A DNA stretch of 64,000 nt. Source: an uncultured Candidatus Binatia bacterium (GTDB taxonomy: Bacteria > Desulfobacterota > Binatia > Bin18). Under the pieces are notes generated by a model, which worked only from the letters and a program-made list of their open reading frames with translations, had not been told where the DNA came from and ran no database searches. Position 1 is the stretch's first letter; each line of letters opens with the position of its first letter. The stretch covers positions 1,624,302-1,688,301 of the forward strand of contig CBDEVZ010000008.1 of assembly GCA_965243735.1 (NCBI GenBank), in the 5' to 3' direction. A program made the translations under genes and the position numbers. This document shows, one piece after another, positions 4,887 through 54,558 of this stretch.

Positions 4887-7800
4887 GTGATGGAATCCAA
4901 CTCTCAATTTTGGATATGGCCACGCTGGTGGGCGGCCGGGCTGCTCGTCCTGCTGCTCGTGGGGTGGTCTGCCAGTGCCCACGCCCAATCGGCCCCCTAT
5001 CAGGTAACCTTTGAGGGCAACTGGACCACTACCGCGACTCCCGATGGGGTGCCCGCCGGGGCACATTTCTCGCCCTTGATCGGGGCCGTCCACAATGACC
5101 AGGTCACTTTCTGGCAGAGTGGCGGTACGGCCAGCACGGGGATCGAGAGTATGGCGGAGATTGGGGGCACGAGCGCCCTCAAATCCGAGATCACCAATGC
5201 CGGCTCAGCGGCGTCCAGCACCATTGAGCGCAGTGGCAATATCGGCGTGACTGCTGAAGTCACGGTGGATATCACGCTCAGCCCCACCCATCCTCTGGTG
5301 ACCCTGGTGACGATGATTGCCCCGAGCCCGGATTGGTTTGTGGGTGTGGCCGACCTGTCCCTGCTTGATGCCCAGAACAAATGGCTGGCGTCACATACGA
5401 TCAACTTGTTTCCGTACGACGCCGGGACCGAGGACGGCACCGAATTTTCGCTAAGTAACGCCGCGACCGATCCCCAGGGCACGATTACCAGCATCGAGGG
5501 GACCGGGAAGTTCTCGAATGAGCCGATGGCGACCCTCACCTTCACGCTGCAGGATGCCGCCCCCGAGATCACCAGCGCGACGACCTTCCCGGTTGACGAG
5601 GGCACCACGACCGTGACGACGCTGACCGCCGTAGACGCGAACGACGACCCGCTGACCTGGACGATTCCGGCAGATGCGGCGGGCGGGGCGGATGCCGCGC
5701 AGTTCACGCTCAGCTCTGCGGGGGTTCTGGCCTTTGCCACGGCCCCGGACTACGAAGCCCCGGCCGACGCGGACACAGACAACCGCTACGAGGTGACGGT
5801 CCAGGTGAGCGACGGCGCCACTCCCGTCACGGCCGCCCTCGAAGTCACGGTCGCCAACGTTATCGAACTGACGGCGATCAGCGGACCGGCAACGGTCTCG
5901 TTCGACGAAAACGGTTGGGGCCGGGTGGCCACGTTCACGGCCTCGTCGGAGGAGGACCGGGCCGGCATCGAATGGGTCCTGGGCGGGGATGATGCGGCCC
6001 ACTTCACGATCGATAGTCCGCCGGGCGCGCTCCGCTTCGACATCGATCCGGTCGCGCCGCGCCTCTTCGCCCAGCCGCCGGACTTCGATGCGCCGGTGGA
6101 CGACGATACGGACAACGCGTACGCGCTGACCCTGCTGGCCCGAGCAGGGTCGGCCATCAGCGACACGGCCTTCCCGGTCACGGTCACCGTCACCGACGTG
6201 GACGAGGACGGCACGCTCTCGCTGTCCGCGACGCGTCCTGCGCTCGGTGTGGCGTTGACCGCCACGCTCGCCGACGCGGACGGGGTGGTTGACGAATCGA
6301 CGGTTTGGACGTGGGAGCGATCCGCGGGCCGCAACGTCTGGGCCGCAGTCGACGGGGCGGATGCGGCCGCGTACACGCCGGTGGCCGCCGACACGGGCGA
6401 GTTCCTGCGGGTCACGGCGACCTATACGGACGAGCACGGGAGCGGCAAGACGGTCCGCGAAGTGGCGGCGGACGTGGTGCGGGGGCCGCTGCTGACGAGC
6501 CTGACGGCCGAGACGACGGATTCCCAGGCGGACTCAACGCAGTCCCTGTTCCCGGCGTTCAATGCGCAGACGCTGCACTACGGCATTGGCTGCAATACCA
6601 CCGACACGATGACGCTCACCGTGTCGGGGCCGGCCAACGCCCGAATCTCAGTTGATGGCGTACAGGCCGCAAGTGCGACCGCGATCAGCGTTTCTGTGGG
6701 CGAAGACGACGACGTGTCGATCACCGTCACCGACACCAGCGGAGCCCGCACGACGTACACCGTCCACTGCATGGCGGACGAGTTGTTTGAGTTCGAGATG
6801 CACAGGTACCCGGGCGCCACCGACGTGACGGAGGATCTGTACATGTTCACGCTGCAAGGTGTGGAGTATCTCGTGGCCCTGGACCGGAACGGCGTACCGA
6901 GAATTGGCCGTAGCGCCGCCATTCGCCATTGGTTCGCCATCAGGTTCACCCGGGTCGGCGCCGACGGCGCGTACCGGTACGCGTACGCCCCCAAAGACGG
7001 GGATGGGTACTGGATTCTGGACGAGAACCTGGAAGTGATCGACGATACGGTGAGGACCGTGGCGCCGCTGACCACCATCAACTGGCATGACTTCCGGTTG
7101 CTGGAGGACGGGAATTACCTGCTGATGGCCTGGGAACCGGCCACCCGCGATCTCAGCGGGCTCGACCTGCCGTTTCCCGCCGGGCAGGATTTCACCGCCG
7201 TCAGTGTGCTCGACTCAGCGGCGCAGATCGTCACGCCCGACGGCGAGGCCGTCTTCAACTGGAATTCCTGGGACCAGGTGGCCCTTGAAGACTGCGTGCA
7301 GCACCGCTTCCCCGTGGTGCTCCCCGCTGCTCCCCAAGGCAGGCAAGCAGGTGGGGGCTACGCGCATATCAACGGAATGGATGTTGCGGATGGTGTGTTC
7401 GTTGGCTCCCTGCGTGGTTGTTCGCAAGTCGTGGGCGTCGATCTGGACACCGAAGAAGTGATCTGGCGGATGGGCCGCACCAACCTCAGCGACGAAGAGT
7501 GGAGGGAGCGTGGGCTCGTGCCGCCGTTGGACTTGATCAACGATCCTGAGGGGGAGTTCTGCGGACAGCACACAACGCAGTTTCTGCCCAACGGGAATGT
7601 CTTCTTCTACGACAACGGTGTGGTTTGCGTGATCGATCCGTTGACGTTCGAAGAGTTGGGGCGGGAAGGACGGGACTTCAGCCGGGCGGTGGAGTACGCG
7701 CTGGACCTTGACAACGACGAAGCGGTCTTCGTGCGCGATCACTCCCTGCATGGCGAAAGAGTGCATCTTGCCCCTGCCACGGGCAGCGTGGATCCCCTGG

Positions 7801-10800
7801 ACAACGGGGACTGGCTGGTCAGTTGGGGCCGCCCCTCGGAGGAGTATCTCCCGAACAATGAAGCCGTCACGCTGGTCGACCCGGACACCGGCCAGGAGAA
7901 ACTCGCCATTCGGTTCACAGTCGTGGACCCCAACGCGGAGCGCCTTCGCCACATCAACGCGAGCGTTGTGCCGGCGGAGGCGCTGGCGCCGCAACCGACG
8001 CCATTGACGGCCGAGATCACGGACAGCCCGTCTCCCGCCACGTTCCACACCGGCGCCGAGGGCGCGCCGCAAGTCGTGGTGGCCTTCAGCCGGCCCGTCG
8101 TCGATTTCGCCCCGACCACGCCCTCGCTCAGCGTGACCGGTGCGACGGTCGCCAGCGTCAGCGCCCACGTCGTGGCCGGCGCACCGGCCAACGCCTACCT
8201 GGTCACGCTCACGCCCGACGGCGACGGGGCCATCACCTTCGGCTTCGTGACCGACCAGCCCTGCGCCGACGGCGGCATCTGCACGGCCGACGGGACGCCG
8301 CTGTCGGAAGTACCGACCGCCCTCACCATCCCCGGCCCGGTCACCGCCAGCTTTGGTGCGGCGAGCTATAGCGTCAACGAGGGGGAGAGCGTCAGCGTCG
8401 TCGTGGAGCTGGACCGCGCCCACGGGCGGCCGGGAGACGTCACGATTCCCCTGGCCGTGGAGAGCGGCAGCACGGCAACGGCCACCGACTATACCCTGCC
8501 CCTCCAGGTGACGTTTGGCCCGAGTGAGACTCGCCAGACGGTCTCACTCGCCACCCACGCCGACACCAGCCTTGAAGAGGCCGAGACCGTTGAGGTCACC
8601 TTCGGTGCGCTGCCGTCCGGTGTCAACGCGGGGACCACCACGGTAACAAGCGTCACGATCACCGACCGGACTCCTGCGGCCCGGTTTAATCTGACCCTCA
8701 ATCCAACCACCATCGTGGAGGGCGGCACGGCCGACGTGCGCGCCAGTATCACCAACGGCGTCACGTTTACCACGGATCAGACCCTCACCCTCGGCTTCAG
8801 TGGCAGCGCGACACAGGAGACGGATTACACCATCGACTCTGCCACCCTCAGCCTGCTGGCAGGACAATCATCGGTCGCGACTATTTTGCGGGCGACGGAC
8901 GATGCCGATACGGAACCCGCCGAGACAATCAGGGTGGCGGTCCACCACGAGACGACCCAGGTCGCGACGCAGACGGCCACGGTCCCGGCCAGCGACCAGC
9001 CAGCAGTGACCCCCCAGATTGCGGTCCGCGCCGGGCGGAATCCGGCCCAGGAAGCCGAGGGCGCGCTCTTCACCGTGACGCGGACCGGCGAGACCACGAC
9101 GAATTTGACCGTGGCCGTCGAGGTGACGGCGAGTGGGAGCATGCCGCTGGCGGGCACGCCGCCCACGGCGGTGACCTTCAGCGTGGGGCAGGAGAACGTG
9201 TCCCTGGCTGTCCCCACCGTGGACGATACGATTATTGAAGGTCCCAGCGAGCGGAGCGTGGTGCGGGCCGAGGTGGTGGCCGACCCGAACACCCCACCGC
9301 TCTACCTGCGCGGCTCCCCGGCCAGTGCCGAGGTAACCGTCGAGGACGATGACGAGGCCGAGTTTGGCGTGACGGTTGCTCCGAACCCGGTGGCAGAGGG
9401 TAGCACGGCTAACGCGCAGGTCGCGATCACCAACGGCGTCACGTTTACGGACGATCAGACGGTGAGCCTCACCTTCAGCGGCGTGGCGACACGGGAGACG
9501 GATTACACCGTGGGAGCCACCACCCTGACCCTCACGGCGGGACAGTCGTCCGTTGTAGCGACCCTCAGCGTGACCGACGACGGCGACAAGGAACCGGCCG
9601 AGAGCGTGCATATTATCGCCCAGCATGCGGGCCGGGAGGTGGGGCGGGCAACGCTCACCATCGCGGCCAGCGAAGACACCAAGCCGCCGACCCTGGAGCG
9701 GGCGGAAGTGCTGCGGGATGGGCGCACCCTGCGGCTGACCTTTAGTGAACCGCTTGACGAAGCCGCGCCCTACCGCCCGGCCGCCACGGCCTTCGCCGTC
9801 ACGGTAGCGGGCGCGCCGCGTGGGGTCAGGACGGTGACGCTCACCGGGGAGACGGTCGTCCTGGGGCTGGCCCGCCCGGTCGGACCGGGCCAAGAGGTGA
9901 CGGTGAGCTACACCGCGCCTGAGAGCGGCAGTGGGCACCCCGCCTTGCAGGACCCAGCGGCCCATGTCGTGGCGAGCTTTGTCGATGCGGCGGTGGACAA
10001 TCAGGCCCAGGCCCGCAGTCAGCCGCCCGGTGGCTCCGGTGGTGGGGGGGGCGGGGGGGGCAGTGGCAGCGGGGGCAGTCCGGACGCTCACGGCAATACC
10101 GCGGCGCAGGCTACGGTCGTCTCGCTCGGCGCGCCCGCCCCGTGGCGGTCGGCCACGAGCGGGCAGCTCAGTCCGGCCAGCGATGTGGATTACTTCACCT
10201 TCACGGTCCCTCAGGCCGGAGTCCTGGTGGCCGAAACCACCGGCGCCACCGCTACGGTCGGGACGGTGTGGCAAGATGGGGTCGCATTGGGCACGGCGGC
10301 CAGTGGCGGGGCGGGCCCGAACTTTCGGCTGACTGTCCCTGTACACGCCGGGCCGGTGGTGGTGGCCGTGCGGGGCCAGGGGGAGCAGACCGGGGCGTAT
10401 CGGTTGGTAACGCGCCTGGTCGTCGGCTTTCTGGAGAATCCCGGTCCCGATTCCTTTCAAAGCGGTATTGGCGTGGTGTCGGGCTGGGTGTGTGGGGCGG
10501 CCAGGGTCGAGATTGCACTCAACGGCGTACTCCACGAGGCGGCGTACGGGACGGAGCGGCTGGACACGGAGCCGGTGTGCGGGGCCAGCGCCACCGGCTT
10601 TGGGGTGTTGTTCAACTGGAATCTGCTGGGCGATGGCGCGCATGAAGTGGTGGCGTTCGTGGACGGCATCGAACTGACCCGGGCTACGGTCACGGTAACG
10701 ACGCTGGGGGAGGAGTTCGTACGGGGTGTGAGCGGGGAGTGTACTGTCGCGGACTTTCCGAGCGGAGGTGAGACGGCCACCCTGGCGTGGCAAGAGGCGC

Positions 10801-11279
10801 AGCAGAGCTTCGTGCTGGCCGAGGGCAGCGCACCGACCGGGGCTTCCCGCTCCGGGATAGCCGGGGTGGGCTTGCTGGAAAACCCGAGTGCCACCTCGTT
10901 TCAGAGCGGCGTCGGGGTGCTGTCGGGCTGGGTGTGTGCGGCGGAGGCAGTCACGATTACGCTCGGCGACCTGGCTCCGCAGGTGGCCGGCTACGGCACC
11001 GAACGGCTGGACACGCTGGATGTCTGCGGGGACACGGCCAACGGCTTTGGGCTGTTGTTCAACTGGAACCTGCTGGGCGATGGCGAGCATGAGGTCATTG
11101 CCACGGTGGATGGGACCGAGCTGGCCCGCACGACGGTGCGGGTGACGACCTTGGGCGAGGAGTTCGTGCGGGGGGCCACAGGGGAGTGCATCGTGGCGGA
11201 CTTCCCGCATCCGGGCGAGACCGTCACGCTCACGTGGCAACAGACCAGCCAGAACTTTGTCCTCACCGACGTGGAGTGA
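4887..11279 (+). CDS. Giant secreted protein: signal peptide, spondin_N-like domain (SPDWFVGV), cadherin-like repeats, arylsulfotransferase-like beta-propeller (tentative), multiple Calx-beta and Ig-like domains, Gly-rich linker, PPC, tandem novel CTD (A 10425-10850, B 10868-11276)
   Basis: 2130-aa ORF with GTG/ATG start at 4887/4890. N-terminal hydrophobic signal (WWAAGLLVLLLVGWSASAHA). Calx-beta-like blocks (ASFGAASYSVNEGESVSV...). DVDYFTF PPC motif. The CTD tandem is the same as in the other giants. Confidence 0.85.
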   Translation: MMESNSQFWIWPRWWAAGLLVLLLVGWSASAHAQSAPYQVTFEGNWTTTATPDGVPAGAHFSPLIGAVHNDQVTFWQSGGTASTGIESMAEIGGTSALKSEITNAGSAASSTIERSGNIGVTAEVTVDITLSPTHPLVTLVTMIAPSPDWFVGVADLSLLDAQNKWLASHTINLFPYDAGTEDGTEFSLSNAATDPQGTITSIEGTGKFSNEPMATLTFTLQDAAPEITSATTFPVDEGTTTVTTLTAVDANDDPLTWTIPADAAGGADAAQFTLSSAGVLAFATAPDYEAPADADTDNRYEVTVQVSDGATPVTAALEVTVANVIELTAISGPATVSFDENGWGRVATFTASSEEDRAGIEWVLGGDDAAHFTIDSPPGALRFDIDPVAPRLFAQPPDFDAPVDDDTDNAYALTLLARAGSAISDTAFPVTVTVTDVDEDGTLSLSATRPALGVALTATLADADGVVDESTVWTWERSAGRNVWAAVDGADAAAYTPVAADTGEFLRVTATYTDEHGSGKTVREVAADVVRGPLLTSLTAETTDSQADSTQSLFPAFNAQTLHYGIGCNTTDTMTLTVSGPANARISVDGVQAASATAISVSVGEDDDVSITVTDTSGARTTYTVHCMADELFEFEMHRYPGATDVTEDLYMFTLQGVEYLVALDRNGVPRIGRSAAIRHWFAIRFTRVGADGAYRYAYAPKDGDGYWILDENLEVIDDTVRTVAPLTTINWHDFRLLEDGNYLLMAWEPATRDLSGLDLPFPAGQDFTAVSVLDSAAQIVTPDGEAVFNWNSWDQVALEDCVQHRFPVVLPAAPQGRQAGGGYAHINGMDVADGVFVGSLRGCSQVVGVDLDTEEVIWRMGRTNLSDEEWRERGLVPPLDLINDPEGEFCGQHTTQFLPNGNVFFYDNGVVCVIDPLTFEELGREGRDFSRAVEYALDLDNDEAVFVRDHSLHGERVHLAPATGSVDPLDNGDWLVSWGRPSEEYLPNNEAVTLVDPDTGQEKLAIRFTVVDPNAERLRHINASVVPAEALAPQPTPLTAEITDSPSPATFHTGAEGAPQVVVAFSRPVVDFAPTTPSLSVTGATVASVSAHVVAGAPANAYLVTLTPDGDGAITFGFVTDQPCADGGICTADGTPLSEVPTALTIPGPVTASFGAASYSVNEGESVSVVVELDRAHGRPGDVTIPLAVESGSTATATDYTLPLQVTFGPSETRQTVSLATHADTSLEEAETVEVTFGALPSGVNAGTTTVTSVTITDRTPAARFNLTLNPTTIVEGGTADVRASITNGVTFTTDQTLTLGFSGSATQETDYTIDSATLSLLAGQSSVATILRATDDADTEPAETIRVAVHHETTQVATQTATVPASDQPAVTPQIAVRAGRNPAQEAEGALFTVTRTGETTTNLTVAVEVTASGSMPLAGTPPTAVTFSVGQENVSLAVPTVDDTIIEGPSERSVVRAEVVADPNTPPLYLRGSPASAEVTVEDDDEAEFGVTVAPNPVAEGSTANAQVAITNGVTFTDDQTVSLTFSGVATRETDYTVGATTLTLTAGQSSVVATLSVTDDGDKEPAESVHIIAQHAGREVGRATLTIAASEDTKPPTLERAEVLRDGRTLRLTFSEPLDEAAPYRPAATAFAVTVAGAPRGVRTVTLTGETVVLGLARPVGPGQEVTVSYTAPESGSGHPALQDPAAHVVASFVDAAVDNQAQARSQPPGGSGGGGGGGGSGSGGSPDAHGNTAAQATVVSLGAPAPWRSATSGQLSPASDVDYFTFTVPQAGVLVAETTGATATVGTVWQDGVALGTAASGGAGPNFRLTVPVHAGPVVVAVRGQGEQTGAYRLVTRLVVGFLENPGPDSFQSGIGVVSGWVCGAARVEIALNGVLHEAAYGTERLDTEPVCGASATGFGVLFNWNLLGDGAHEVVAFVDGIELTRATVTVTTLGEEFVRGVSGECTVADFPSGGETATLAWQEAQQSFVLAEGSAPTGASRSGIAGVGLLENPSATSFQSGVGVLSGWVCAAEAVTITLGDLAPQVAGYGTERLDTLDVCGDTANGFGLLFNWNLLGDGEHEVIATVDGTELARTTVRVTTLGEEFVRGATGECIVADFPHPGETVTLTWQQTSQNFVLTDVE

Positions 11280-11285
11280 GCCCCG

Positions 11286-11508
11286 CCAGAGCTAGGGCGT
11301 TTCACGTTAGGCTGTAGTCATGCCGTTCCGCTCTCGTTCTGCTGGCCGCGATCCGATATCCCTGCTTCGACTTCGCTCCGCTACGCTCAGCACGAACGGG
11401 AGACCGTTAGTCCTGAGCCTGTCCTGAGCCGTGTAGGTCAGGTTAGCCGGAGGCGTAACCTGACATCCCGTACGTGTCGGATTACGCTCCGCTCATCCGA
11501 CCTACTAC
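11286..11508 (+). repeat. MITE-like palindromic repeat (halves A+B) inserted at the 3' end of the preceding gene
   Basis: Half A (11286-11400) matches the reverse complement of 44700-44800. Half B (11428-11508) is near-identical to 54456-54537 and to the reverse complement of 49715-49796. B contains two 9-bp-stem hairpins: GTCAGGTTA-N10-TAACCTGAC and GTCGGATTA-N8-TAATCCGAC. Confidence 0.6.
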
Positions 11509-11586
11509 TTCCCGCATCCGGGCGAGACCGTCACGCTCACCTGGCAGGAGTCCAGCCAGAACTTTGTCCTCACCGACGTGGAGTGA
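11509..11586 (+). repeat. Imperfect ~78-bp duplicate of the last ~25 codons + stop of the CTD gene (cf. 11202-11279)
   Basis: CTTCCCGCATCCGGGCGAGACCGTCACGCTCAC...GTGGAGTGA is repeated with 5 mismatches. The two copies encode WQQTSQNFVLTDVE* and WQESSQNFVLTDVE*. Confidence 0.6.
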
Positions 11587-11706
11587 GCCCCGCCGGGGGC
11601 AGTCACCACCTACTCGGGCCTCTTTTTTCCCATTTTTCGTTTTTTCTTGTCCTTTCTACCCATCTGGGCAGCGATATTTTCATACCGATGTGGTGTGGGC
11701 AGCAGA
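11587..11706 (+). promoter_or_regulatory. Post-stop module M2: hairpin GCCCCGCCGGGGGC (11587-11600), CT tract, palindrome CTACCCATCTGGGCAGCG (11656-11673), GTGTGGGCAG box (~11694)
   Basis: Member of the conserved module family described for M1. Confidence 0.4.
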
Positions 11707-19559: not shown

Positions 19560-22456
19560 ATGCAGGAAATTCATATGCGTAGAAGCAGATGCCACCACAT
19601 TCTGTGTGGGGTGGTGGTGGCCATATGCGTGGCAGTTGCTGGCAGTCCTGATGCAGCCCATGGCCAATCCATCCCATCCAGTTCGTTTGTCACCACTTGG
19701 CGCACGACAGCGAACAACCAGTCCATCACCATTCCGGCGAGCGGCACGTATACCATCGACTGGGGCGACGGGACCGTGGAAGAGGACGTGCGGGGCAGGC
19801 AGTCCCACAGGTATGATTCCGCTGGTACCTACACGGTGCGCATATCCGACGGTATCACCAGATTCCACCTCAACGGTCAGGCTGGCGCGAACAGGCTGGT
19901 ATCCATCGAGCAGTGGGGGACTGCCCAGTGGACATCGATGCATGAGGCGTTCCAGGGCGCATCCAACATGGAATACAACGCCACTGATGCGCCTGACCTC
20001 TCGCAGGTCACGGACGCCGCCCTCATGTTCTACGGTGCCTCGTCCTTCAACGGTGACATATCCGACTGGGACGTATCGTCTTTGACCAACATGAAATCCA
20101 TGTTCCACAAAGCCGATGCCTTCAACCAGCCCCTGTCCTCCTGGGATGTCTCGTCGGTGGCCAGCATGGCGCTGATGTTCTCCAGCGCCCGCTCCTTCAA
20201 CCAACCCCTGGACTCCTGGGACGTGTCGTCGGTGACCGAAATGAAGCCATGTTCCAGAACACCGATGCTTTCAACCAATCCCTGGACTCCTGGGACGTGT
20301 CGTCGGTGACCAACATGCGCTCCATGTTCTGGAATGCCCGCTCCTTCAACCAACCCCTGTCCTCCTGGGACGTGTCGTCTGTGACCAACATGTTGTGGAT
20401 GTTCCGCGACACCGGCGCCTTCAACCAGCCCCTCTCCTCCTGGGACGTGTCATCTGTGACCAACATGAACGAAATGTTCCGCGACACCGGCGCCTTCAAT
20501 CAGCCCCTGTCCTCCTGGGACGTGTCGTCTATAACCAACATGCTCGGCATGTTCCGCGGCGCCACCGCCTTCAACGGCGACATCTCCGACTGGGACGTGT
20601 CGTCTGTGACCAGCATGGTGTGGATGTTTTACGGTGCCACGTCCTTCAACCAGCCCCTGGACTCCTGGAACGTGTCGTCTGTGACCAACATGCTCGGCAT
20701 GTTCTTCAACGCCACATCCTTCAACCAGCCCCTGAACTCCTGGAACGTGTCGTCTGTGACCAGCATGACTGACATGTTCTATGGCGCTGTCGCCTTCAAC
20801 CAGCCCCTCTCCTCCTGGGACGTGTCGTCTGCGACCAACATGAGCTACATGTTCGATGGCGCCTCCGCCTTTGAGCAAAACCTCGGAAGCTGGCACATCG
20901 TGCTGGATGACACGTCAATCGACTACGGCGATACACCGGGAACCGTCGGAGGCATATCCGCGCAGAACGCCTTCCTTGACCAGCAGAACCCCGTCTACGG
21001 GATAAGCCCCGGCGGCGACTCCGGCTCCTTCGAGCTGAACGGCACCGACCTCGTGATGAAGGAGGTTCCCACCAAGGACTCGTACACGGTGACCCTCACG
21101 GCGACCGCCACGGGAGACTTTGGCACCGGCAACTCCCGGATCTTCACCATAGCGGTGTCGGGCCTGCCCACCTCTCCGCCGCCACCCCCGCCGCCACCCC
21201 CGAGCAACACCGGGGGTGGGGGAAGCAGTGGCAGCAGCGGGGGCGGGGGCAGCCGTTCCCCGGATCAGCACGGAGACACGCCGGGGCAGGCGACGGCAGT
21301 CACCCCGCACGCCCGCGCGCCGTGGGCGGCGTCCACACCGGGCCACCTCAACAGTCCGAGCGATGTAGATTATTTCACGTTGGAGGTGCCGTATGACGGG
21401 GTGTTGGTGGTCGAGACCGCCGGCTCGACCGACACCGTGGGCACGGTGTGGCAGGCCGGGGTCGAACTGGCCACCGCGACCGGCGGAGGTGCGGGCCAGA
21501 ACTTCCACCTCAGCGTCCCCGTGCAGGCCGGAGCGGTGATGATTGCCGTGGCGAGTGCTGGGCGGACGGGGAGCTATCACTTGGAGACACGCCTGGTGGT
21601 CGGCTTTCTGGAGAACCCCGGCCCCGCCTCCTTCCAGAGCGGCATTGGCGTGGTGTCGGGTTGGGTGTGCACGGCCGAGGTGGTGGAGATCGCGTTGAAT
21701 GGGGCCGTGCAGGAAGCGGGATATGGCACGGCACGGAGCGATACGGCCGGCGTGTGTGGGGACACGGACAATGGGTTTGGGTTGCTGTTCAACTGGAACC
21801 TGCTGGGGGACGGCGAACATGAGGTCGTGGCGTATGTAGACGGCGTTGAACTGGCGCGCACGACCGTGACGGTGACGACGCTGGGCGCAGAATTTCTGCG
21901 GGACGTGACCGGCGAATGCACCGTGGCCGACTTTCCGAGTGCGGGCGAGGGTGTGCGGCTTGTGTGGCAGCAAGCGCAGCAGAACTTTGTCCTGGCCGAA
22001 GGCGCTGTCCCGCGCGGCCCGACCCAGGCCGGGACGGCCGGGGTCGGGTATCTGGAGAACCCGAGCCCCAACTCGTTTCAGAGTGGGATTGGGGTGGTGT
22101 CGGGCTGGGTGTGCGCGGCCGGCTTGGTCGAGATCGAGATTGGGCATCTCACGCCGCAAGTCGCCGCGTACGGGACCGAACGACGCGATACCCAAGCCAT
22201 GTGCGGGGACAGCGGCAACGGATTTGGGTTGCTCTTCAACTGGAATTTGCTCGGTGATGGGGAACATGACGTCATTGCCTACGTAAATAACATCGAGTTA
22301 GGCCGGGTCACGGTGCGGGTGACGACGCTGGGCGAAGAGTTCGTGCGGGGCGCTGTGGGCGAATGCACCGTGGCGGACTTCCCCAGTCCGGGGGAGCGTG
22401 TGACGCTCACCTGGCAACAGAGCAGCCAGAATTTTGTGATCAGCGGAGTGGAGTAG
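19560..22456 (+). pseudogene. Secreted DUF285-type (F..A.AFNQPL.SWDVSSVTNM..MF) repeat protein + poly-Pro/Gly linker + PPC + tandem novel CTD (A 21602-22020, B 22047-22453); split into ORFs 19560..20309 and 20249..22456 by a 1-nt frameshift at ~20244-20248
   Basis: Signal peptide on ORF 19560. At least 12 near-identical 78-bp repeat units. Only 5 nt (aagcc) separate the two Met codons where every other unit has 6. Downstream frame carries DVDYFTL PPC and the CTD tandem. Confidence 0.7.
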
Positions 22457-34800: not shown

Positions 34801-36032
34801 GCGTGTTTGACCCCCTGTCCAGTTTGACAACGCTGGACTTGAGCGACAATGCCTTGACCGCGTTACCGGCGGGCGTCTTCGATGCCCTGTCCAGCCTGAC
34901 GACGCTGAACCTGGCCAACAACTCCGCTCTGTCCTACTCGCCCGAAGCGTTGAGCCCATTGACCAGCCTGACGCGCCTCAACGGGGAATCGTACACCCCT
35001 CCGGCCCCCTCAAACGCCCCGACTGACCTGGCGGCGACTATCACCACCGGTGGGATCGCCCTCCATTGGACGGCCCCCACGACCGGGGTGGTCACCAGCT
35101 ACCGGATTCTGCGTCAGGAGGGGGCCGGTCCACAGGAAGTCCATGTCGCGGACACCTACGCGAGCGGCGGGGCGGCGGTGACCTATACCGACGCCGACAT
35201 CACGGTCGGCGAGACCTACCGGTATCAGGTTCAGGCGCTGAACGCGGGCGGGGCCAGTCCCAAATCCAACGAGGCGGTTGTGGCGCTGACTGCGGTGGTG
35301 GACCTCTGCGACCGCACAGAGCCCGTGCAGACCGCCGTCGTGGAGGCGGTCCACACCATCACCTGCGCCCCCTTTTCAGCTGTCAAGCTGGCGGCGATCT
35401 CCATCCTGGACCTGAGCGGGCAACACATACGCGCGTTGCGAGCGAATGATTTCGCCGGCATGTCCGGCCTGACGGTGCTGAATCTGCGCGAGACCGATGT
35501 AGAGTCGTTGGAGGCGGGGGTGTTCGACCCCCTGCCCGACCTGATCACGCTGGATCTGCACGGGAATCAGCTCGAGTCGTTACCGGGCGGAGTGTTCGAC
35601 GCACTGTCCCAACTGGCCACGCTGGACTTGAGCAACAATCTCCTGCGCGGGTTACCGGCAGGCGTGTTTGACTACCTGTCCGCGCTCACGACGCTGGACC
35701 TGAGCAACAATAACCTCAGTGCGCTGCCGCCGGGCGTGTTTGACCACCTGTCCAGTCTGACCACGCTGGACTTGAGCAACAATGCGCTGGCCGCACTGCC
35801 GGCGGATCTCTTCGATGCTCTGTCCAATCTGGCCACACTGGACCTGAGCAACAATACGCTAACCGCGCTACCCGCGGGCATCTTCGATGTCCTGTCCAAT
35901 CTGACCACGCTGCGTCTCAACAATAACCCCGACCTGTCCTACTCGCCCGAAGTGTTGAGTCGGCTGACCCGCCTGACGCGCCTCAACGGCGCCCCGTATA
36001 CCCCCCCCAGCGCTCCCGAGCACCCCGACTAG
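31893..36032 (+). CDS. Secreted LRR + FN3 modular protein (six LRR-block/FN3 units); N-terminal portion of a frameshifted gene that continues in ORF 36076..38169
   Basis: Signal peptide (LASRSVLALLAGILTLLPPVVLAQA); probable start ATG 32001. LRR consensus L..L.L..N.L..LP.G.F. FN3 (APPGAPTGL...YRILRQ...YQVQALNAGGAS). The ORF ends just after a C8 tract (36001-36008). The +1 frame continues the same FN3 repeat into the next ORF. Confidence 0.75.
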   Translation: MNLLPGAGNSLVRGRRTEPGRRAGKSDHADGPAIFSMRTGHYGRQGAEKRLFLLVRIFQTETLSPFLRRSGKRLPLRLASRSVLALLAGILTLLPPVVLAQADDPALSVDICDRTEQVRSRILLKVSATDCTDVSTSELAAITTLSATSNGVLSLRAGDFAGLTGLKKLYLARNHLIGLPADIFAELSSLTELDLASNRLISLPAGLFDALSSLGKLNLSNNPDLSYSPYLLSPLTSLTQLNGTAYTSPAPPGAPTGLTAAFTDEHIALSWTSPATGTPTSYRILRQAGTDPQAVYVADTYAAHRDAVTYTDTGVTAGETYTYQIQALNAGGASAGSNLAVAVVDICGRTESVRTTILAVVTATDCALVSISELAAITSLDLSGASITTLQAGDFAGMTGVTTLDQPDDLDASAYSPYLLSRLTSLTQLNGASYTRPAPPGAPTGLTATFTDGHIALRWTAPATGAPTSYRILRQEGVGSQVVYVADTYAAGGTAVTYTDTGVTAGETYWYQVQALNAGGASAGSNMAAARAFVPVNICGRTSRMQRAILAKPVVIATDCALVSPNKLAAITNLELGNGYLHSLRSRDFAGMTGLMRLDLHGNRITRLPAGVFDELPNLTYLNLDATNLMALPAGVFDKLTKLTTLDLCANELRTLPAGIFDKLTELTTLELYLNDLRTLPAGIFDRLPNLTKLYLYRNELTSLRAGVFDKLMNLSSLLLHENDLTSLPEGIFDELSSLRELNLAENDLTSLPAGIFDELSNLTELNLVDNSNLSYSPYLLSPLTSLTRLSYAHYTRPAPPGAPTDLTATVRAAGIHLSWTAPATGTPTSYRILRQAGTDPQEVYVADTYDTGGTAVTYTDTAVAAGETYTYQVQALNAGGASAGSNEAEATMSSVANICDRTGPVLTAILAQVSGTACGRVLTSQLAAITSLDLSGASIAALQASDFAGLSGLTSLGLSDNTLGALPPGVFDPLSSLTTLDLSDNALTALPAGVFDALSSLTTLNLANNSALSYSPEALSPLTSLTRLNGESYTPPAPSNAPTDLAATITTGGIALHWTAPTTGVVTSYRILRQEGAGPQEVHVADTYASGGAAVTYTDADITVGETYRYQVQALNAGGASPKSNEAVVALTAVVDLCDRTEPVQTAVVEAVHTITCAPFSAVKLAAISILDLSGQHIRALRANDFAGMSGLTVLNLRETDVESLEAGVFDPLPDLITLDLHGNQLESLPGGVFDALSQLATLDLSNNLLRGLPAGVFDYLSALTTLDLSNNNLSALPPGVFDHLSSLTTLDLSNNALAALPADLFDALSNLATLDLSNNTLTALPAGIFDVLSNLTTLRLNNNPDLSYSPEVLSRLTRLTRLNGAPYTPPSAPEHPD

Positions 36033-41689: not shown

Positions 41690-41815
41690 GGGCTGCACCC
41701 ATCGCCTGGGAGCCGCCTACGGCACCGCGCGGGCCGATACCGCTGAGACGGCAGAGGGCGAGGAGTTTCTGCGGGGTGTCACGGGCGAGACGGTTGTTCC
41801 TGACTTTCAGTATGC
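41690..41815 (+). pseudogene. Relic fragment of the novel CTD (...AAYGTARADTAETAEGEEFLRGVTGETVVPDF...) with no intact ORF
   Basis: One-frame translation of 41604..42020 contains a degenerate YGTERLDT...TTLGEEFLRGV.GECVV.DF block. Overlaps the 5' end of the ankyrin gene. Confidence 0.5.
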
Positions 41816-42576
41816 GTCGATTCTTGCATCCTTGCCTCTTCGTCCTGTGTCTGCTGGCGGGCGGGGCGTGGCCGGCGTGGGGCCAGTCGTTGTTAGACGC
41901 GACGTGGCTCGCAGCAGCGACGCCGGCCGAGGTGCACACGCTCCTGGAACGGGGGGCGGATCTGGCGGCGCGCACCCCGGATGGTCTCACGCCTTTACAC
42001 GTAGCGGCAGCGGGGAATAGTCAGCTGGCGGTGATCGACCTACTCCTGGAGCGGGGGGCGGATGTGGCGGCGCGTGACATGATCGGTGGGACGCCCCTGC
42101 ACTGGGCGGCGCGGCGCGGCCAGCCGGCGGTGGTCGGCCTGCTGCTGGAACGAGGGGCGGATGTGGCGGCGCAGACCACAGGCGGCGGGACGCCCCTGCA
42201 CTGGGCGGCGGCACAGAACCCGACGCCAGCGGTGGTGGAGTTGCTCCTGGAGCGAGGAGCGGATGTGGCGGCGCGCACCGAGACGGGTCGGACGCCCCTG
42301 CACTGGGCGGCGGCGCAGAACCCGACGCCGGCGGTGGTGGAGTTGCTCCTGGAGCGAGGGGCGGATGTGGCGGCGCGCACCGAGACGGGCCGGACGCCTT
42401 TGCACTGGGCGGCGGCACAGAACCCGACGCCGGCGGTGGTGGAGTTGCTCCTGGACCGGGGAGCGGATGCCACCGCTCAGGACGAGGATGGCAAGACGCC
42501 TGTGGATCTCGCGGCCGAGAACGTGGCGCTCACCGGCACGGCCGCGTACCGGCGGCTCCAGGCCGCGCGGTTTTGA
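41776..42576 (+). CDS. Secreted ankyrin-repeat protein (signal peptide + ~6 ANK repeats); start probably ATG 41812
   Basis: MRRFLHPCLFVLCLLAGGAWPAWGQ signal. Repeats G.TPLHWAA...VVELLLERGADVAA. Four near-identical 99-bp DNA units span 42180-42480. Confidence 0.8.
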   Translation: MSRARRLFLTFSMRRFLHPCLFVLCLLAGGAWPAWGQSLLDATWLAAATPAEVHTLLERGADLAARTPDGLTPLHVAAAGNSQLAVIDLLLERGADVAARDMIGGTPLHWAARRGQPAVVGLLLERGADVAAQTTGGGTPLHWAAAQNPTPAVVELLLERGADVAARTETGRTPLHWAAAQNPTPAVVELLLERGADVAARTETGRTPLHWAAAQNPTPAVVELLLDRGADATAQDEDGKTPVDLAAENVALTGTAAYRRLQAARF

Positions 42577-42667
42577 GCCTCGCTGCCCTGGCAAAAAGGG
42601 CGGGTATTCGATTCCCGCCGCCTCCATTCCTGTTTGATTTATCCTGTTCCCGCCCATTTCTTGACAG

Positions 42668-43426: not shown

Positions 43427-44644
43427 ATGGAAGACACCCAATCAATCCGCGCTCAGATCAGCTACGAAACCGACCGCAAGGGACCGCCCGAGGGCTTTCC
43501 GCAATTCCCCGACCTGCCGGGAAAACGGTACACCGATCCCCGTTTTTACGATCTGGAAAAGCAGCAGCTGTGGCGTAAAGCGTGGCTGTTTGCCGGGCAT
43601 ATGGATGAGATTCCAGAGCCGGGCTGTTTTAAGCTGTGGGAAACGGCCGGACAACCGGTTGTCATTGTCCATGCGCGTAGCGGCGAGGTCCGGGCGTACT
43701 ACAATACCTGCCGCCACCGCGGCGCACCGCTCGTCCGCGAGGCCAGCGGGAAAGCCGACCGCTTCACCTGTGGCTATCACGGCTGGACCTATAACCATGC
43801 CGGTGAGCTGATCGGTCTGCGCGATGAGCGCGATTTTGTCGATCTCGATTTTTCGTGTCGGTCGCTGTATCCAGTCCGTATTGAGCGGCTTGGCAAGTTT
43901 CTGTTCGCCAACTTTGACCCCGACGCCCGTCCGCTGACCCAAGAGCTGGCGCCCCTGCTTCCGCAGTGGGAGCAGTTTCAGTTCGAACGCCTGCGCTTTG
44001 TTCACAAAGACTCCTTCAACCTGAACTGCAACTGGAAGATCGCCATGGAATCCAACATGGAGGTCTATCATGTCCGGTCGATTCATCCGCAGACCGTTTC
44101 ACCCATGCTGGATCATCGCGGCAATGTGAATACCCTCTACCCGGGTGGACACGGGCGCATGATTGCGCCACTCAAAGCGCACAACCATACCGAGACTGCC
44201 GCAATCGTCGATGACCGGCCGGATATTGAAACCGTGGGTGAGATCCCGCGAACCTGTATCGTGTCTTTTAATATCGTGCCCAATCTTGTCTCGCCCATGA
44301 GTGAGAAGGGGCTGCCGATTTTTGCCTTCTGGCCAACCGGCATCAACACCACACGGCTTGAGCTGTGGTGGTTTGGAGAGGATTGGGGAACTGCGCCCAA
44401 ACCGAAGAGTTGGGACACGTATATCGACTATTTCAACGGAATTGTTGCCGAAGATACGCAGTTTGGTAACGGCATTCAGCGCGGAGTCGAGTCCTACGCC
44501 TTTGGCGGGGTGCCGCTAAGCTACCAGGAAGCCCGCCTGTATCACTGGCATCAAGCTGTCGATGAGATCATCGGGATCGAGCATATTCCGCCCGAACTTC
44601 GCGTCGCGCCGGTCATTGAGCCGGGCTGGATTTCGCACGCCTAG
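43427..44644 (+). CDS. Rieske [2Fe-2S] aromatic ring-hydroxylating oxygenase alpha subunit
   Basis: Rieske motif CRHRG...CGYHGWTY (CxH-x17-CxxH) and a downstream mononuclear-iron His region. ORF 43289.. trimmed to ATG 43427. Confidence 0.8.
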   Translation: MEDTQSIRAQISYETDRKGPPEGFPQFPDLPGKRYTDPRFYDLEKQQLWRKAWLFAGHMDEIPEPGCFKLWETAGQPVVIVHARSGEVRAYYNTCRHRGAPLVREASGKADRFTCGYHGWTYNHAGELIGLRDERDFVDLDFSCRSLYPVRIERLGKFLFANFDPDARPLTQELAPLLPQWEQFQFERLRFVHKDSFNLNCNWKIAMESNMEVYHVRSIHPQTVSPMLDHRGNVNTLYPGGHGRMIAPLKAHNHTETAAIVDDRPDIETVGEIPRTCIVSFNIVPNLVSPMSEKGLPIFAFWPTGINTTRLELWWFGEDWGTAPKPKSWDTYIDYFNGIVAEDTQFGNGIQRGVESYAFGGVPLSYQEARLYHWHQAVDEIIGIEHIPPELRVAPVIEPGWISHA

Positions 44645-44654
44645 CGCAAATAAC

Positions 44655-44800
44655 GATGCCGTGTAGCCCTTCGACTTCAGGCGCGCTGCGCCTTACGCTC
44701 AGGACCAACGGCTTCCCGTTCGTGCTGAGCGTAGCGGAGCGAAGTCGAAGCACGGATGCCGGATCGCGCTCGGCAGGGCTACAGCCTAACGTGAAACGCT
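44655..44800 (-). repeat. MITE-like repeat (half A type), reverse orientation
   Basis: Reverse complement of 44700-44800 aligns with 11286-11400, sharing GCGTTTCACGTTAGGCTGTAG and TGCTTCGACTTCGCTCCGCTACGCTCAGCACGAACGGGA. Long internal hairpin CTTCGACTTC...GAAGTCGAAG. Confidence 0.5.
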
Positions 44801-44828
44801 CTAAATGACCCCAGCGCGGTGTGCCGCG

Positions 44829-48640: not shown

Positions 48641-49621
48641 CTAAGCCGGCTCTACACGTTTTGTGACTGGCTGGCTGGCTTTTGCGGCTTGATACTCGTG
48701 CCGCAGCCGGCCAACCAGCTCCCGCACGACCGGCACGTCGTGGATGCAGCCGGCCGTGTGTCCGGCGCTCCAGATGTCGCGGTAGCGCCTTTTGCTGCCG
48801 GGGTCGAGGTCTTTTGCCACATCGATCATGCCCCGCTCGGGAAGGGTGTCGGGGTCGAGTCCGGCGGCCTCAATCGACTGCCGAATCATATTGGTCTCCA
48901 GGCCGCTGAAGGCTTTGGTCAGCGTGATGCCGTCCATGTTGGTGCCGACGATCATGCGCTTATAGGCTTCTGGGGCCATGCTCTCCTGGGTGGCGATAAA
49001 ACGCGTGCCCATATACGCCAGGTTACAGCCCAGCGCTTCGGCGGCGTGCAGCGCCGTGCCGTCGGCCACCCCGCCGGCCAGGACAAGCGGGCCGTCAAAG
49101 ACTTCCCGGACCTGGCGGACAAAGGCGAAGGGGTTGGCCCAGCCGGTCTGACCGCCGGCCCCTGCGGTCAGGAGGATCAGGCCGTCCGAGCCGGCGGCCA
49201 GGGCTTTTTCCACATGCCGCATGCTGGCCACGTCGGCATACACCACGCCGCCGTAGTCGTGGATGGGCTCGATGATGGCGTGCGGGCTGCCGACGCTGGC
49301 GATGACCAGCTCAATCCGGTGCTTTCTGACCAACTCCAGATCGTCCTCCAAACGTGGGTTCGAGCGGTGCACAATCAGATTCGCGCACGGTGGCGCAACC
49401 GGCTGTTCGGGGTGGGCCGCCCGAAAATCGCTCAGCCGCCGGGTAATCTGACTCAGCCAGTCGTCCAACTGCTCAACGGTTCGACAGTTGGCGGTCGGGA
49501 AGGCACCGATAACGCCGGCCTGGCAGGCCTCAATGACCAGTTCCGGGCCGGATACCAGGAACATCGGAGCGGCGATCAGGGGCAGACACAAACGGTCGTC
49601 AAACTGGGCGGGAATGGGCAC
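48641..49621 (-). CDS. Nitronate monooxygenase (NMO / 2-nitropropane dioxygenase family)
   Basis: FMN-binding TIM-barrel pattern (LIAAPMFLVSGPELVIEACQAGVIGAFP). Confidence 0.8.
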   Translation of the reverse strand: MPIPAQFDDRLCLPLIAAPMFLVSGPELVIEACQAGVIGAFPTANCRTVEQLDDWLSQITRRLSDFRAAHPEQPVAPPCANLIVHRSNPRLEDDLELVRKHRIELVIASVGSPHAIIEPIHDYGGVVYADVASMRHVEKALAAGSDGLILLTAGAGGQTGWANPFAFVRQVREVFDGPLVLAGGVADGTALHAAEALGCNLAYMGTRFIATQESMAPEAYKRMIVGTNMDGITLTKAFSGLETNMIRQSIEAAGLDPDTLPERGMIDVAKDLDPGSKRRYRDIWSAGHTAGCIHDVPVVRELVGRLRHEYQAAKASQPVTKRVEPA

Positions 49622-49693
49622 GCAGACTTCTCCTTTGGGCGTCGTCGCCCCAGGTTCAGGCTGAACGGAAGCAGTCTTTGCGGACTGTCAGCA

Positions 49694-49796
49694 CGGTTCA
49701 CGATAGGCTGTCGTAGGTCGGATTAGCGGAGCGTAATCCGACACGTACGGGATGTCGGCTTACGCCTACGGCTCACCCGACCTACACGGCTACACA
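49694..49796 (-). repeat. MITE-like repeat (half B type with terminal inverted-repeat end), reverse orientation
   Basis: Reverse complement matches 54456-54558, including the terminal GCCCTATCGTGAA(G/C)CG. Confidence 0.5.
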
Positions 49797-49811
49797 TAAT
49801 GGTGAATTGCT

Positions 49812-50993
49812 CTAGCGCCGCAGAATGGCCAGACTACCGTCGCCAAAGTCGCCCCAGCCGGTCACCAGTCCGACCTGCGCGTTCGGCACCTGGCGCTGAC
49901 CGCAGTCGTGGCGCAGCTGACGGGTGGCCTCGACCACGTGGTTGAGGCCGGCCACATGGGCTTCCGAGTGCAGGCCGCCGTGGGTGTTCATCGGCAGCTC
50001 GCCGCCAAGCTCCAGACGCTGGTCTTTGACAAAGTCGGCGCCTTCACCCGGCTGACACAGGCCCAGGGCTTCGAGTTGCAGCAGTACGACATAGGTAAAG
50101 CAGTCGTAGACCTCAATGAAGTCGAGGTCCTGGCGGTCGATCTCGGCCATGTGCAGCGCCTTGGGGGTGGCGAAGCTGAGCCCGATCTTGAACGGGTCGG
50201 GTCGGGCCGGAATATCGTCGGCCGGGTAGGGGTGGCCTTCGGCCAGACCCGCGATATACACCGGCGTGTGTGGGCAGTCGGCGGCTCGCTCGGCGGCCGA
50301 GATCACCACCGCACAGGCGCCGTCCGTCTCCAGGCAGCAGTCGAACAGGCGAAACGGTTTGGCCACCCAGCGCGCGTTCAGATAATCCTCCATGGTCAGC
50401 GGACGGCCGCACATATAGGCTTTGTCGTTGAGCTGGGCGTGCTTGCGTGAGGCAAGGGCAATAGCTCCGGTGGCTTCGTCCGGGACCCCGTACAATGCCT
50501 TGTGGCGGGTGGCCATCCAGGCGTACCACTGGACCGGAACCGAGGCGCCAAAGGGCAGGTAGTACTCGTTGATGGTGGTCATCAGCGCGCCCAGGGCGCC
50601 GCTCATGCTGCCGCCCTTGTCGCTGCCCAGGCTGCGCACCCGCGCGCCCGAATAGCCCTTCCAGCCAAACGGCACCAGCACGTGGCGGGCTACACCGCAG
50701 GCTACGGCCAGGGCCGCGCTCTGCAGCGCGGTCACCGAGCTGGCGCCGCCCATATGCACCGTGGCGGCGTAGCGCAGGTCTTCGACGCCGAGGTTGGCCG
50801 CAAAATGCTCGGCCGTGGCAAACGGCGTCGGGGGCGGGATGATGCCGTCGATATCGTGGGGGCTGAGACCGGCGTCGGCAATCGCGTGCATCGACGCTTC
50901 CAGCATGAGGCTGAACTCTTTTTTATCGGTGCCGCGGGTGTAGGCGGTCTCTCCAACTCCCGTGATACACGCCTGATCTTTGAGTGACTGCAT
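49812..50993 (-). CDS. Thiolase-like (SCP-x / lipid-transfer-protein type acetyl-CoA acyltransferase)
   Basis: Thiolase-fold sequence with catalytic Cys region. Confidence 0.75.
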
Positions 50994-53300: not shown

Positions 53301-53303
53301 TCT

Positions 53304-53921
53304 GTGGCTCAGCCTACTTCGTCACCCTCTCGTATCCTTTTAGTCGAAGGACAGAATGACAAGCACGTCGTTCTGCATCTCCGTGCCAGGCGTCCATTGA
53401 CATTGGACTTTGACGTTCGGGACACGGGAGGTATTGACCAACTGCTCCCGTCTATCGGTCCTGAAATCAAGGTTTCAGGGCGACAGGTCGTCGGTATTCT
53501 CGTGGATGCAGACGACAATATGACAGCGCGTTGGGACGCCGTCACAGATCGACTCTCGAAGGCCGGTATCTCGCCACCGCCGTCTCCCGATTCAGCCGGG
53601 ACGATCATAGACGGAACACCTCGCATTGGTATCTGGCTAATGCCGAATAATGAAGCGTCCGGCGAGCTTGAGGATTTTGTCGTGCGAATGATCCCTGGCG
53701 GGGATCAGGTTTGGCCGTTATCCCGGCGCTACATAGAAGAGATTCCAGAAACGGAGAGAAAGTTTTCAGAGAAGAAAAAGCTGAGGGCGCAGCTCTACGC
53801 CTGGCTGGCGGCTAGGGAGGACCCCAGGCAGATGGGGTTAGCCATTCGCGCGGGCGATTTGGAAGTCGATAGCGAACTCAGCCAGAAATTTATTGCCTGG
53901 CTTACGAAACTGTTCGGATAA
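53304..53921 (+). CDS. TOPRIM-like DUF4435/RloB-family protein, partner of the upstream ATPase
   Basis: LLVEGQND (conserved Glu) and ILVDADDN (DxD) TOPRIM motifs. Starts 4 nt after the ATPase stop. Confidence 0.55.
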   Translation: MAQPTSSPSRILLVEGQNDKHVVLHLRARRPLTLDFDVRDTGGIDQLLPSIGPEIKVSGRQVVGILVDADDNMTARWDAVTDRLSKAGISPPPSPDSAGTIIDGTPRIGIWLMPNNEASGELEDFVVRMIPGGDQVWPLSRRYIEEIPETERKFSEKKKLRAQLYAWLAAREDPRQMGLAIRAGDLEVDSELSQKFIAWLTKLFG

Positions 53922-54443: not shown

Positions 54444-54455
54444 TATCTTCTCCTA

Positions 54456-54558
54456 GCCGTGTAGGTCAGGTTAGCCGGAGGCGTAACCTGACATCCCGTA
54501 CGTGTCGGATTACGCTCCGCTAATCCGACCTACTACGCCCTATCGTGAAGCGCACTAG
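54456..54558 (+). repeat. MITE-like repeat (half B + terminal inverted repeat)
   Basis: 54456-54537 matches 11428-11508 with 1 mismatch. Terminal GCCCTATCGTGAAGCGC is the inverted counterpart of GCGTTTCACGTTAGGC at 11288. Confidence 0.55.

Follow-up and report, generated by a model that had tools for sequence, protein, structure and literature searches.

A 64-kb stretch of bacterial DNA (hereafter the window), apparently from a member of Candidatus Binatia, carries hairpin-forming repeats at four sites, one of which (11286-11508) lies just behind a giant surface-protein gene that we call gene 2. We found that these repeats are two unrelated palindromic families that have common termini in this lineage. 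Our preferred explanation, which we consider likely, is that one family (module B) is a REPIN, a doublet of repetitive extragenic palindromes (REPs) of the REP/RAYT kind, RAYTs being REP-associated tyrosine transposases; that the other (module A) is a separate palindrome; and that the copy behind gene 2 is a truncated, immobile mosaic of the two. The hairpins are then REP/REPIN-type selfish or domesticated repeats, and neither a new regulatory RNA nor a gene-disrupting transposon.

The original prediction described four or more copies of one repeat family that share two modules and are 95-99% identical. Self-BLAST of 11280-11520 against the whole window established that the repeats are real and non-random, and that a single two-module element is not. 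Positions 14-139 of the query (module A) matched the 44.7-kb site at only 76% identity, with gaps, and positions 143-229 (module B) matched the 54.5-kb site at 97.7% and the 49.7-kb site at 91.5%; the proposed range of identity did not hold. Both modules occur together at 11286-11508 only, the 44.7-kb site consisting of A alone and the 49.7- and 54.5-kb sites of B alone. Common to all four sites is the flank, which is formed by TTCACGWTAGGSYGT(N)GTAG at one side and by CTACACGGC at the opposite side. Within the window, TTCACGWTAGGSYGT occurred four times (0.41 expected), a 27-nt module A arm twice (0 expected), and the REP head GTAGGTCRGRTTA 12 times at no more than two mismatches (1.76 expected), a count that was equalled in 0 of 100 shuffles. 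Each of the four copies abuts or overlaps a stop codon; both orientations relative to transcription are seen, and one copy lies between convergent genes.

Module B is found at 11424-11506, 49689-49812 and 54451-54554 as inverted pairs of GTAG-tagged REP hairpins. These three doublets are all extragenic and all beside stop codons. The layout is GTAG-GTCGGATTA-(8-nt loop)-TAATCCGAC, an 11-nt spacer, and GTCRGSTTA-(10-nt loop)-TMACCYGAC-CTAC, that is, two stem-loops in inverted orientation, one with an 8-nt and the other with a 10-nt loop, with GTAG outermost. GTAG next to a 9-bp stem was present in six of six window REPs, the REP units being 30-32 nt long. Each doublet is predicted to form one long hairpin, with folding z-scores of -4.0 to -5.4 as RNA and -4.05 to -4.57 as single-stranded DNA. 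The complete unit is the 124-nt REPIN at 49689..49812 on the minus strand (z = -5.4/-4.0 as RNA and -4.05 as DNA), in which two inverted GTAG REPs (49713-49742 and 49754-49785) are enclosed by the inverted termini AGCAnnTTCAC / GTGAAnnTGCT; its ends, GAGCAATTCAC… and …GTGAACCGTGCTG, are inverted and are paired in the fold. We read the true termini from this unit. The inverted terminal sequences originally proposed had been pieced together from different copies and are the same end in two orientations. The double 9-bp stems also proposed are both perfect only in the plus-strand REPIN at 54451..54554 (stems at 54461-54492 and 54504-54533, one outer terminus, z about -5); the copy at 11.4 kb has one mismatch, and one REP stem at 49.7 kb pairs at seven of its nine positions. 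Because an inverted pair of GTAG REPs that folds as one hairpin is what the published definition of a REPIN describes (two inverted REPs, a short spacer, one hairpin; Bertels & Rainey 2011, PMC3116915), module B is better called a REPIN, the term for REP doublets that RAYTs mobilise, than a classical miniature inverted-repeat transposable element (MITE) with terminal inverted repeats and target-site duplications.

Gain or loss of whole units was borne out by comparison with close relatives. Orthologous regions, which we designate by L numbers along with the other loci retrieved, were obtained through close homologues of the nitronate monooxygenase (NMO) gene (48641-49621). Exactly the 124 nt of 49689-49812, between GGCGCTA and ACAGTCC, are missing from L244 and L121 (~90% NMO identity) and present, with clean junctions, in L119 and L120 (97% NMO identity; alignment A5), indicating that the doublet is gained or lost as a unit. 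The insertion point is inside a stop codon, namely that of a thiolase-like gene, and lies upstream of the NMO gene; the codon is TAA in L244 and TAG in the filled allele, the G coming from the element. No target-site duplication was found at 49689/49812 in alignment with L244 and L121.

The second resolved site is that of module A. At 44638..44805, on the minus strand, an A palindrome with arms at 44669-44750 sits within REPIN-like termini (…GCCGTGTAG / CTACAGCCTAACGTGAAACGCTCTAAA), and L119 has 8 nt in place of these 168 nt between flanks that are 94.6-96.4% identical. Megablast and inspection by eye gave the boundaries of this empty site. A Rieske oxygenase gene has its last two codons and its stop codon rewritten by the insert, from …SQM* to …SHA*, and comparison with L119 revealed no target-site duplication at 44638/44805, 8 nt having been replaced instead. 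This unit folded with z = -4.1 as RNA and -4.8 as DNA. Both resolved insertions are in or on stop codons, and the element supplies the new TAG. The L119 and L120 contigs, which come from the same assembly, overlap at the thiolase-NMO junction with the REPIN and the NMO gene; L119 begins at a contig end just upstream of the REPIN and L120 ends just after the NMO gene, an overlap suggesting that the assembly breaks here. At L120 3900-4660 the amidase 3′ end and the REPIN region look error-ridden, or else hold a second, degraded REPIN copy, and this amidase junction was left out of the evidence because of the apparent errors.

The repeats had been called MITE-like and mobile, and they are indeed miniature, palindromic, non-autonomous and intergenic, with whole units present or absent between relatives. 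What did not survive is the classical form of that idea, in which the repeats are internally deleted derivatives of an insertion sequence (IS) with a DDE transposase, are recognised by their terminal inverted repeats, and leave a target-site duplication. Complete units of 124-168 nt that are polymorphic between strains and have short inverted termini paired in the fold would fit such an origin. However, the duplication is absent at both resolved empty sites, module B has a canonical GTAG REP doublet at its core, and a search of the window and the fetched loci, which was not exhaustive, revealed no transposase gene with these ends. The sole transposase found between split A arms, in L199, is an IS110-family insertion into the palindrome. 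We therefore regard a classical MITE as very improbable.

The same REP is associated with RAYT genes in other genomes. Searches with tblastn and a RAYT profile, the matches of which were confirmed by NCBIfam and PDB, placed RAYT genes next to this REP in L078 (Janthinobacterium), L045 (Marinobacter), L044 (a gammaproteobacterium) and L093 (Nitrospirales, truncated). The first three are full length and match NCBIfam NF047646 at 1e-52 to 1e-57, and L093 matches it at 3e-30; the L078 protein also matches the Escherichia coli TnpA-REP structure (PDB 4ER8) with E = 2.7e-52. In a profile search of the protein database, we examined the best 120 of about 8000 RAYTs. The REPs flank the RAYT gene in inverted orientation in L078, L045, L044 and L243. 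The last of these, a 2.38-Mb ENA contig, contains an intact RAYT gene with a 10-nt-loop REP 28 nt upstream and an 8-nt-loop REP downstream, which are the same two types as in the window doublet, one on each side of the gene. Its host is probably a member of the Nitrospirales, because the gene upstream of the RAYT ends with the same residues as the open reading frame (ORF) upstream of the L093 RAYT, itself decayed.

From these data we infer that a RAYT encoded in this genome moves the copies in the window. REPIN units would be cut and pasted as single-stranded hairpin DNA by this enzyme (HUH/Y1), encoded elsewhere in the genome, and this mode leaves no target-site duplication. Several observations weigh against such an explanation. 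Neither tblastn nor profile search detected a RAYT in the window (64 kb) or in ~200 kb of DNA from Binatia, so the matching transposase that the original prediction suggested looking for was met only beside the same REP types in other genomes. Only three doublets are present in the window. Current activity is also not apparent from the 49.7-kb REPIN, which is fixed at one and the same site in strains that are ~97% identical. The 168-nt unit has no REP hairpins and yet is the most recent insertion, which is not obviously explained by a RAYT that acts on REP hairpins. Finally, an 88-nt duplication around the copy behind gene 2, described below, matches no known REPIN mechanism.

Conservation of the REP stems across taxa pointed to maintenance of pairing. 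The stem variants GGATTA/TAATCC, GGGTTA/TAACCC, AGGTTA/TAACCT and TTGGAT/ATCCAA were all seen, which are compensatory changes, and G-U pairs were tolerated. Changes on both sides of the stem were found in 43 of 259 hairpins, a sample partly biased by the search pattern used. Among 18 distinct partner hairpins, 95.7% of cells were paired and two of nine pairs had changed on both sides; these pairing values exceeded all 500 shuffles and all slid controls. A scan for GTAGGTCGGATTA-N6-10-TAATCCGAC, with one genome per species, found the same REP in at least 118 stretches of very diverse genomes. Hosts among the matches listed include Candidatus Binatia, Nitrospira, Nitrospirales, Entotheonella, Tectimicrobiota, Marinobacter, Cellvibrio, Stutzerimonas, Janthinobacterium, Nitrosospira, Polaromonas and Thiotrichaceae, among others; a scan of viral contigs with the REP gave no matches. 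Also among the matches listed, related Binatia metagenome-assembled genomes (MAGs) had several REPs each, and the closest full-length matches, termini included, were to Binatia MAGs. Together with the distribution of the flank (see below), these best matches point to Candidatus Binatia as the source lineage. One REP type and its RAYT are thus common to very distant bacteria, namely beta- and gammaproteobacteria and probably Nitrospirales. In Binatia and Entotheonella/Tectimicrobiota, we found the REP alone of this pair, no RAYT being detected in the loci examined. In Stutzerimonas tarimensis (L023 2995-3718), six REPINs of the same type are arranged head-to-tail with a period of ~115 nt, resembling a cluster of bacterial interspersed mosaic elements (BIMEs).

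Module A differs in kind and is very widespread in environmental bacteria. Its arm, CTTCGACTTCGCTYCGCTACGCTCAG, was found in at least 120 stretches of metagenome contigs, and its consensus is GGCGYCCTTCGACTTCGCTYCGCTACGCTCAGGACGAACGG, a loop, and the complement. In 127 sequences (126 fetched loci and the window), we identified 235 A arms and 54 clear palindromic pairs, the loops of which measure 12-198 nt; nested copies and half copies are numerous, and the unit at 44638-44805 is the only complete one in the window. The loops are highly variable in the JGI loci L123-L242 (for example, L137 667-773 and L209 6146-6418), some of which contain nested modules (…CCTGAGCTTGTCGAAGGGC…) or internal tandem repeats. 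Clustering of neighbouring ORFs in the fetched loci yielded housekeeping families only and no gene linked to module A, and tblastn and profile searches of 120 module A loci revealed no RAYT. An IS110-family transposase gene (NF033542, 1.5e-62) at L199 5741-7129 was considered as the mark of a parent IS and rejected, as it had inserted into the palindrome between the now split arms. This arrangement suggests that module A palindromes are IS110 targets, as REPs are in Pseudomonas; passages of PMC8450116 describe IS110-family elements that target REPs. A search of the literature by sequence string returned no name for module A and nothing relevant for module B.

In the window lineage, module A is joined to REPIN-type ends. 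Both window A copies are preceded by an identical 21-nt REPIN-type flank, and a 38-nt A arm is identical in both of these copies and in the Binatia MAG locus L097, in which the order of parts (flank, A left arm, REP doublet) is that of the copy behind gene 2. The TTCACG flank is absent from module A outside the window lineage, with L097 as the one exception. We saw the lineage-specific flank GCGNTTCACGWTAGGCTGTAG in the window, L119/L120 and a single Binatia MAG (CBDBEO01; L055, L060 and L069) only, and it had no matches in the JGI metagenome collection; it seems confined to the window lineage and that MAG. The identical flank and arm in the window copies and L097 indicate that the flank+A composite is repeated at sites unrelated to one another, in one case as a fresh insertion, and in this lineage the composite would have moved at least once recently.

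Two explanations of this chimera differ from the one that we prefer. In the first, the mobile unit is set by the termini (TAGAGCnnTTCAC…GTAG / CTAC…GTGAAnnGCTCTA) and not by the REP hairpins, and the cargo is either a REP doublet or module A. We entertain this possibility only tentatively. If it is true, a RAYT can act on cargo that has no canonical hairpins, or else both kinds of unit are moved by an unknown enzyme. Apart from this, module A would represent a palindromic class of very wide distribution, with no linked transposase in the sampled loci. REPIN termini that enclose a foreign palindrome would, if the mobility is real, bear on what a RAYT recognises. In the second explanation, a REPIN was there first and lost its REP hairpins when an independent module A jumped into it, both at 44.7 kb and in the A part of the copy behind gene 2. 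Such nesting is in keeping with the wide occurrence of module A without REPIN termini and with the status of REPs as insertion hot spots (the IS110 insertion in L199; passages of PMC8450116). However, L119 lacks the termini and the core alike, so that two successive events within ~4% divergence would be needed, and flank+A is found at three unrelated loci in two genomes with the identical 38-nt arm in all three. We consider nested insertion unlikely.

The copy behind gene 2 differs from these complete units. Gene 2 (4887-11279, plus strand) encodes a surface-protein-like product of 2130 amino acids with Spondin_N, cadherin, Calx-beta and SWM-repeat domains. The original prediction placed the repeat across the stop region of this gene. 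Instead, we found that the gene ends with TGA at 11277-11279, followed by the 8 nt GCCCCGCC and then by a 219-nt insert at 11288..11506 (plus strand), which sequence inspection and self-BLAST identified as a truncated A+B mosaic. It consists of the terminus CTAGGGCGTTTCACGTTAGGCTGTAG (11292-11317), a full A left arm (11363-11399), an A right arm that is cut after ~15 nt, and a REP doublet (11424-11506) from which both outer termini are missing. Its two REP hairpins are GTAG + GTCAGGTTA / TAACCTGAC with a 10-nt loop at 11433..11464 on the plus strand and GTAG + GTCGGATGA / TAATCCGAC with an 8-nt loop and one stem mismatch at 11476..11505 on the minus strand; the doublet stops abruptly at CTACTAC, where it is joined to the gene tail TTCCCG. 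The long module A hairpin that had been predicted, CTTCGACTTC...GAAGTCGAAG, is present only at 44669-44750; in the copy behind gene 2 its right arm is truncated. The A part of this copy gave a fold on a par with shuffles (z = -0.34); for the B part, z was -4.25. This copy is presumably a decayed mosaic that is no longer able to move.

The gene tail that had been reported as duplicated behind this copy was confirmed and refined to an 88-nt direct repeat. Copy 1 (11200..11287, plus strand) spans the final 26 codons of gene 2 together with its stop codon and GCCCCGCC, and copy 2 (11507..11594, plus strand) is an orphan gene tail. The two are 219 nt apart and identical at 84 of 88 positions, with the four differences clustered at 11234-11244. 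Of the tails compared, that of gene 2 itself is nearest to the orphan, the six paralogues in the window reaching at most 79/88, and the orphan runs on into the downstream region typical of this gene family, with GGGGGC, a stretch rich in T and the CTGCCCAnnTGGGCAG motif. From the position of the stop codon, the similarity of the tails and the family-typical downstream region, we therefore conclude that gene 2 is intact and that the duplication is local. The mosaic would have landed in a small hairpin just after the gene 2 stop codon. The 88-nt duplication is not a product of HUH or DDE transposition; it would have arisen in the same event, most likely by illegitimate recombination or template switching. 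Candidate origins are template switching at the hairpin and homology-facilitated illegitimate recombination with a variant allele, the latter of which would account for the clustered differences. Among more than 1250 relatives of the C-terminal module, none above ~81% identity was found that could serve as a gene 2 orthologue with the pre-insertion tail.

We also considered the possibility that the duplicated tail is an artefact of metagenome assembly, produced by collapse of a strain-level insertion polymorphism or of paralogous tails. The population contains close strain variants (L119/L120 are ~97% identical), a related contig is noisy around its REPIN (L120 3900-4660), the window contains seven paralogous tails, and the four positions that differ are clustered. 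However, both junctions are unique sequence, the orphan tail is closer to gene 2 than to any paralogue, and it continues into a complete family-typical downstream region. An artefact is accordingly quite improbable.

A different reading of all four sites is that these are host RNA elements first and that their spread is secondary, the hairpins stabilising the 3′ end, acting as attenuators where genes are co-directional, or damping translation when near the stop codon. The position of every copy just after or overlapping a stop codon is what this reading would expect, as are hairpins that are strong as RNA and tolerate G-U pairs, and E. coli REPs located less than 16 nt from a stop codon down-regulate translation (PMC12306157). 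In addition, the 54.5-kb REPIN exactly fills a gap that has the amidase stop codon (54555-54557) at one end and, at the other, the ribosome-binding site of a Phd/YefM-type antitoxin gene (start 54443), and the base of its hairpin pairs that stop codon with part of the ribosome-binding site. Counting against an RNA role are the occurrence of copies in both orientations relative to transcription, with one between convergent genes, and the orthologous junctions in relatives that work without the element. The terminator function suggested by the original prediction was not supported, since a terminator-like hairpin followed by a T-run coincided with none of the four copies. The same prediction had left room for a known structured RNA family; Rfam gave no match at the gathering score over the whole window and none at E ≤ 1 over 11200-11700, and a tRNA/tmRNA scan of the window found none. 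We judge a primary RNA role possible but doubtful. It is compatible with mobile REPINs and not exclusive of them: effects on neighbouring genes, such as mRNA 3′-end protection or translational damping near the stop codon, are possible, and passages of PMC12306157 and PMC3733652 associate REPs with mRNA stability.

The genes next to the 54.5-kb REPIN (52164-54443, -/+) include the Phd/YefM-type antitoxin, which is a weak Pfam match (25.7 bits, below the 29.8 cut-off), and a possible PIN toxin partner, PIN being called only in the relatives L120/L121. An AAA_15/AAA_21 ATPase, the domains of which were read from the L120 orthologue, and a DUF3226 protein lie nearby and may constitute a defence-type pair. 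In place of the REPIN, the toxin-antitoxin pair of L121 is preceded by an AT-rich region of its own. For the LCM gene, a look-up of the exact protein found no entry.

Inspection of the remainder of the window revealed that its homology to L119 ends at 42600, inside the last 25 nt of the L119 gene for transfer-messenger RNA (ssrA; L119 7354-7703), of which the window keeps only the 3′ fragment GCGGGTATTCGATTCCCGCCGCCTCCA (boundary 42600-42625). Left of 42600 are seven giant surface-protein genes and an ankyrin-repeat gene, whereas L119 has ssrA-SmpB-panC-panB; L122 is probably like L119, judging from its SmpB-panC-panB gene order only, with no DNA-level match to the window. Window 1-42625 has the appearance of a genomic island, at least 42 kb long, that integrated at ssrA. 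The seven paralogues (59-41519) encode proteins of about 700-2700 amino acids with varied N-terminal adhesin-type domains and end at 4642, 11279, 19100, 22456, 31786, 38169 and 41519. They share a C-terminal module of ~400 amino acids that contains a tandem 447-nt repeat, has no Pfam match, and has its more than 1250 protein-database relatives almost all in ENA assemblies; it may be a sorting or anchoring module. Tandem repeats also lie inside two giant genes, at 19991-20946 and 35433-36007, their periods being 75 nt and 72 nt. The palindromic motif CTGCCCAnnTGGGCAG(CG) occurs at 4723, 11656, 19181, 22881, 31847 and 38252, with a variant near 41585, giving nine strand-matches where 0.5 are expected. 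It lies ~80 nt past the stop codon of most paralogues, ahead of the next gene (a few hundred nt for the gene ending at 22456), and may serve the island as an operator or promoter element. The last island gene (41812-42576, plus strand) encodes an ankyrin-repeat protein (Ank, E = 4.6e-49), a eukaryote-like type that is common in host-associated bacteria.

Comparison with known systems places the window repeats closest to REPINs (PMC3116915), with which they have in common inverted REPs, a short spacer, a single hairpin, an extragenic location, gain or loss of the whole doublet, no target-site duplication, and, in other genomes, RAYT genes flanked by the same REP types. In contrast to those REPINs, the window unit has extra conserved inverted termini (AGCAnnTTCAC) beyond the REPs, its host is apparently Candidatus Binatia and not a proteobacterium, and the cognate RAYT was not found in the window. 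The REPs also resemble the GTAG-tagged REPs that passages of Di Nocera et al. 2013 (PMC3733652) describe, in which an unpaired GTAG stands at one end of a 20-40 bp stem-loop. As in those passages, dimers have GTAG outside and two different stems and loops ('head-head' heterodimers), they are located after coding regions, and some are embedded in longer palindromes. The window stem, 9 bp plus two or three further pairs with a one-base bulge, resembles the description of the long-stem 'GTAG-24' type, which the same passages report for P. stutzeri, P. aeruginosa and A. vinelandii; they do not mention Binatia, Nitrospirales or Entotheonella as hosts. The E. coli REP/BIME system with TnpA-REP (PDB 4ER8; Messing et al. 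2012, PMC3479197) is similar in that the adjoining RAYT matches 4ER8 and in that its REPs form clusters and mosaics, as in L023 with six tandem REPINs; the stem and loop sequences differ, however. Classical MITEs (Correia/NEMIS and other IS-derived elements) are likewise small, intergenic and strain-polymorphic with inverted termini, whereas the window units have no target-site duplication, no parent IS that we found, and a REP doublet as core. The system is thus of a known kind (REP/REPIN), in an under-studied host and together with a common palindrome, and is unusual only in the chimera of REPIN termini and a foreign core, in its insertions at stop codons, and in the cross-phylum sharing of one REP type.

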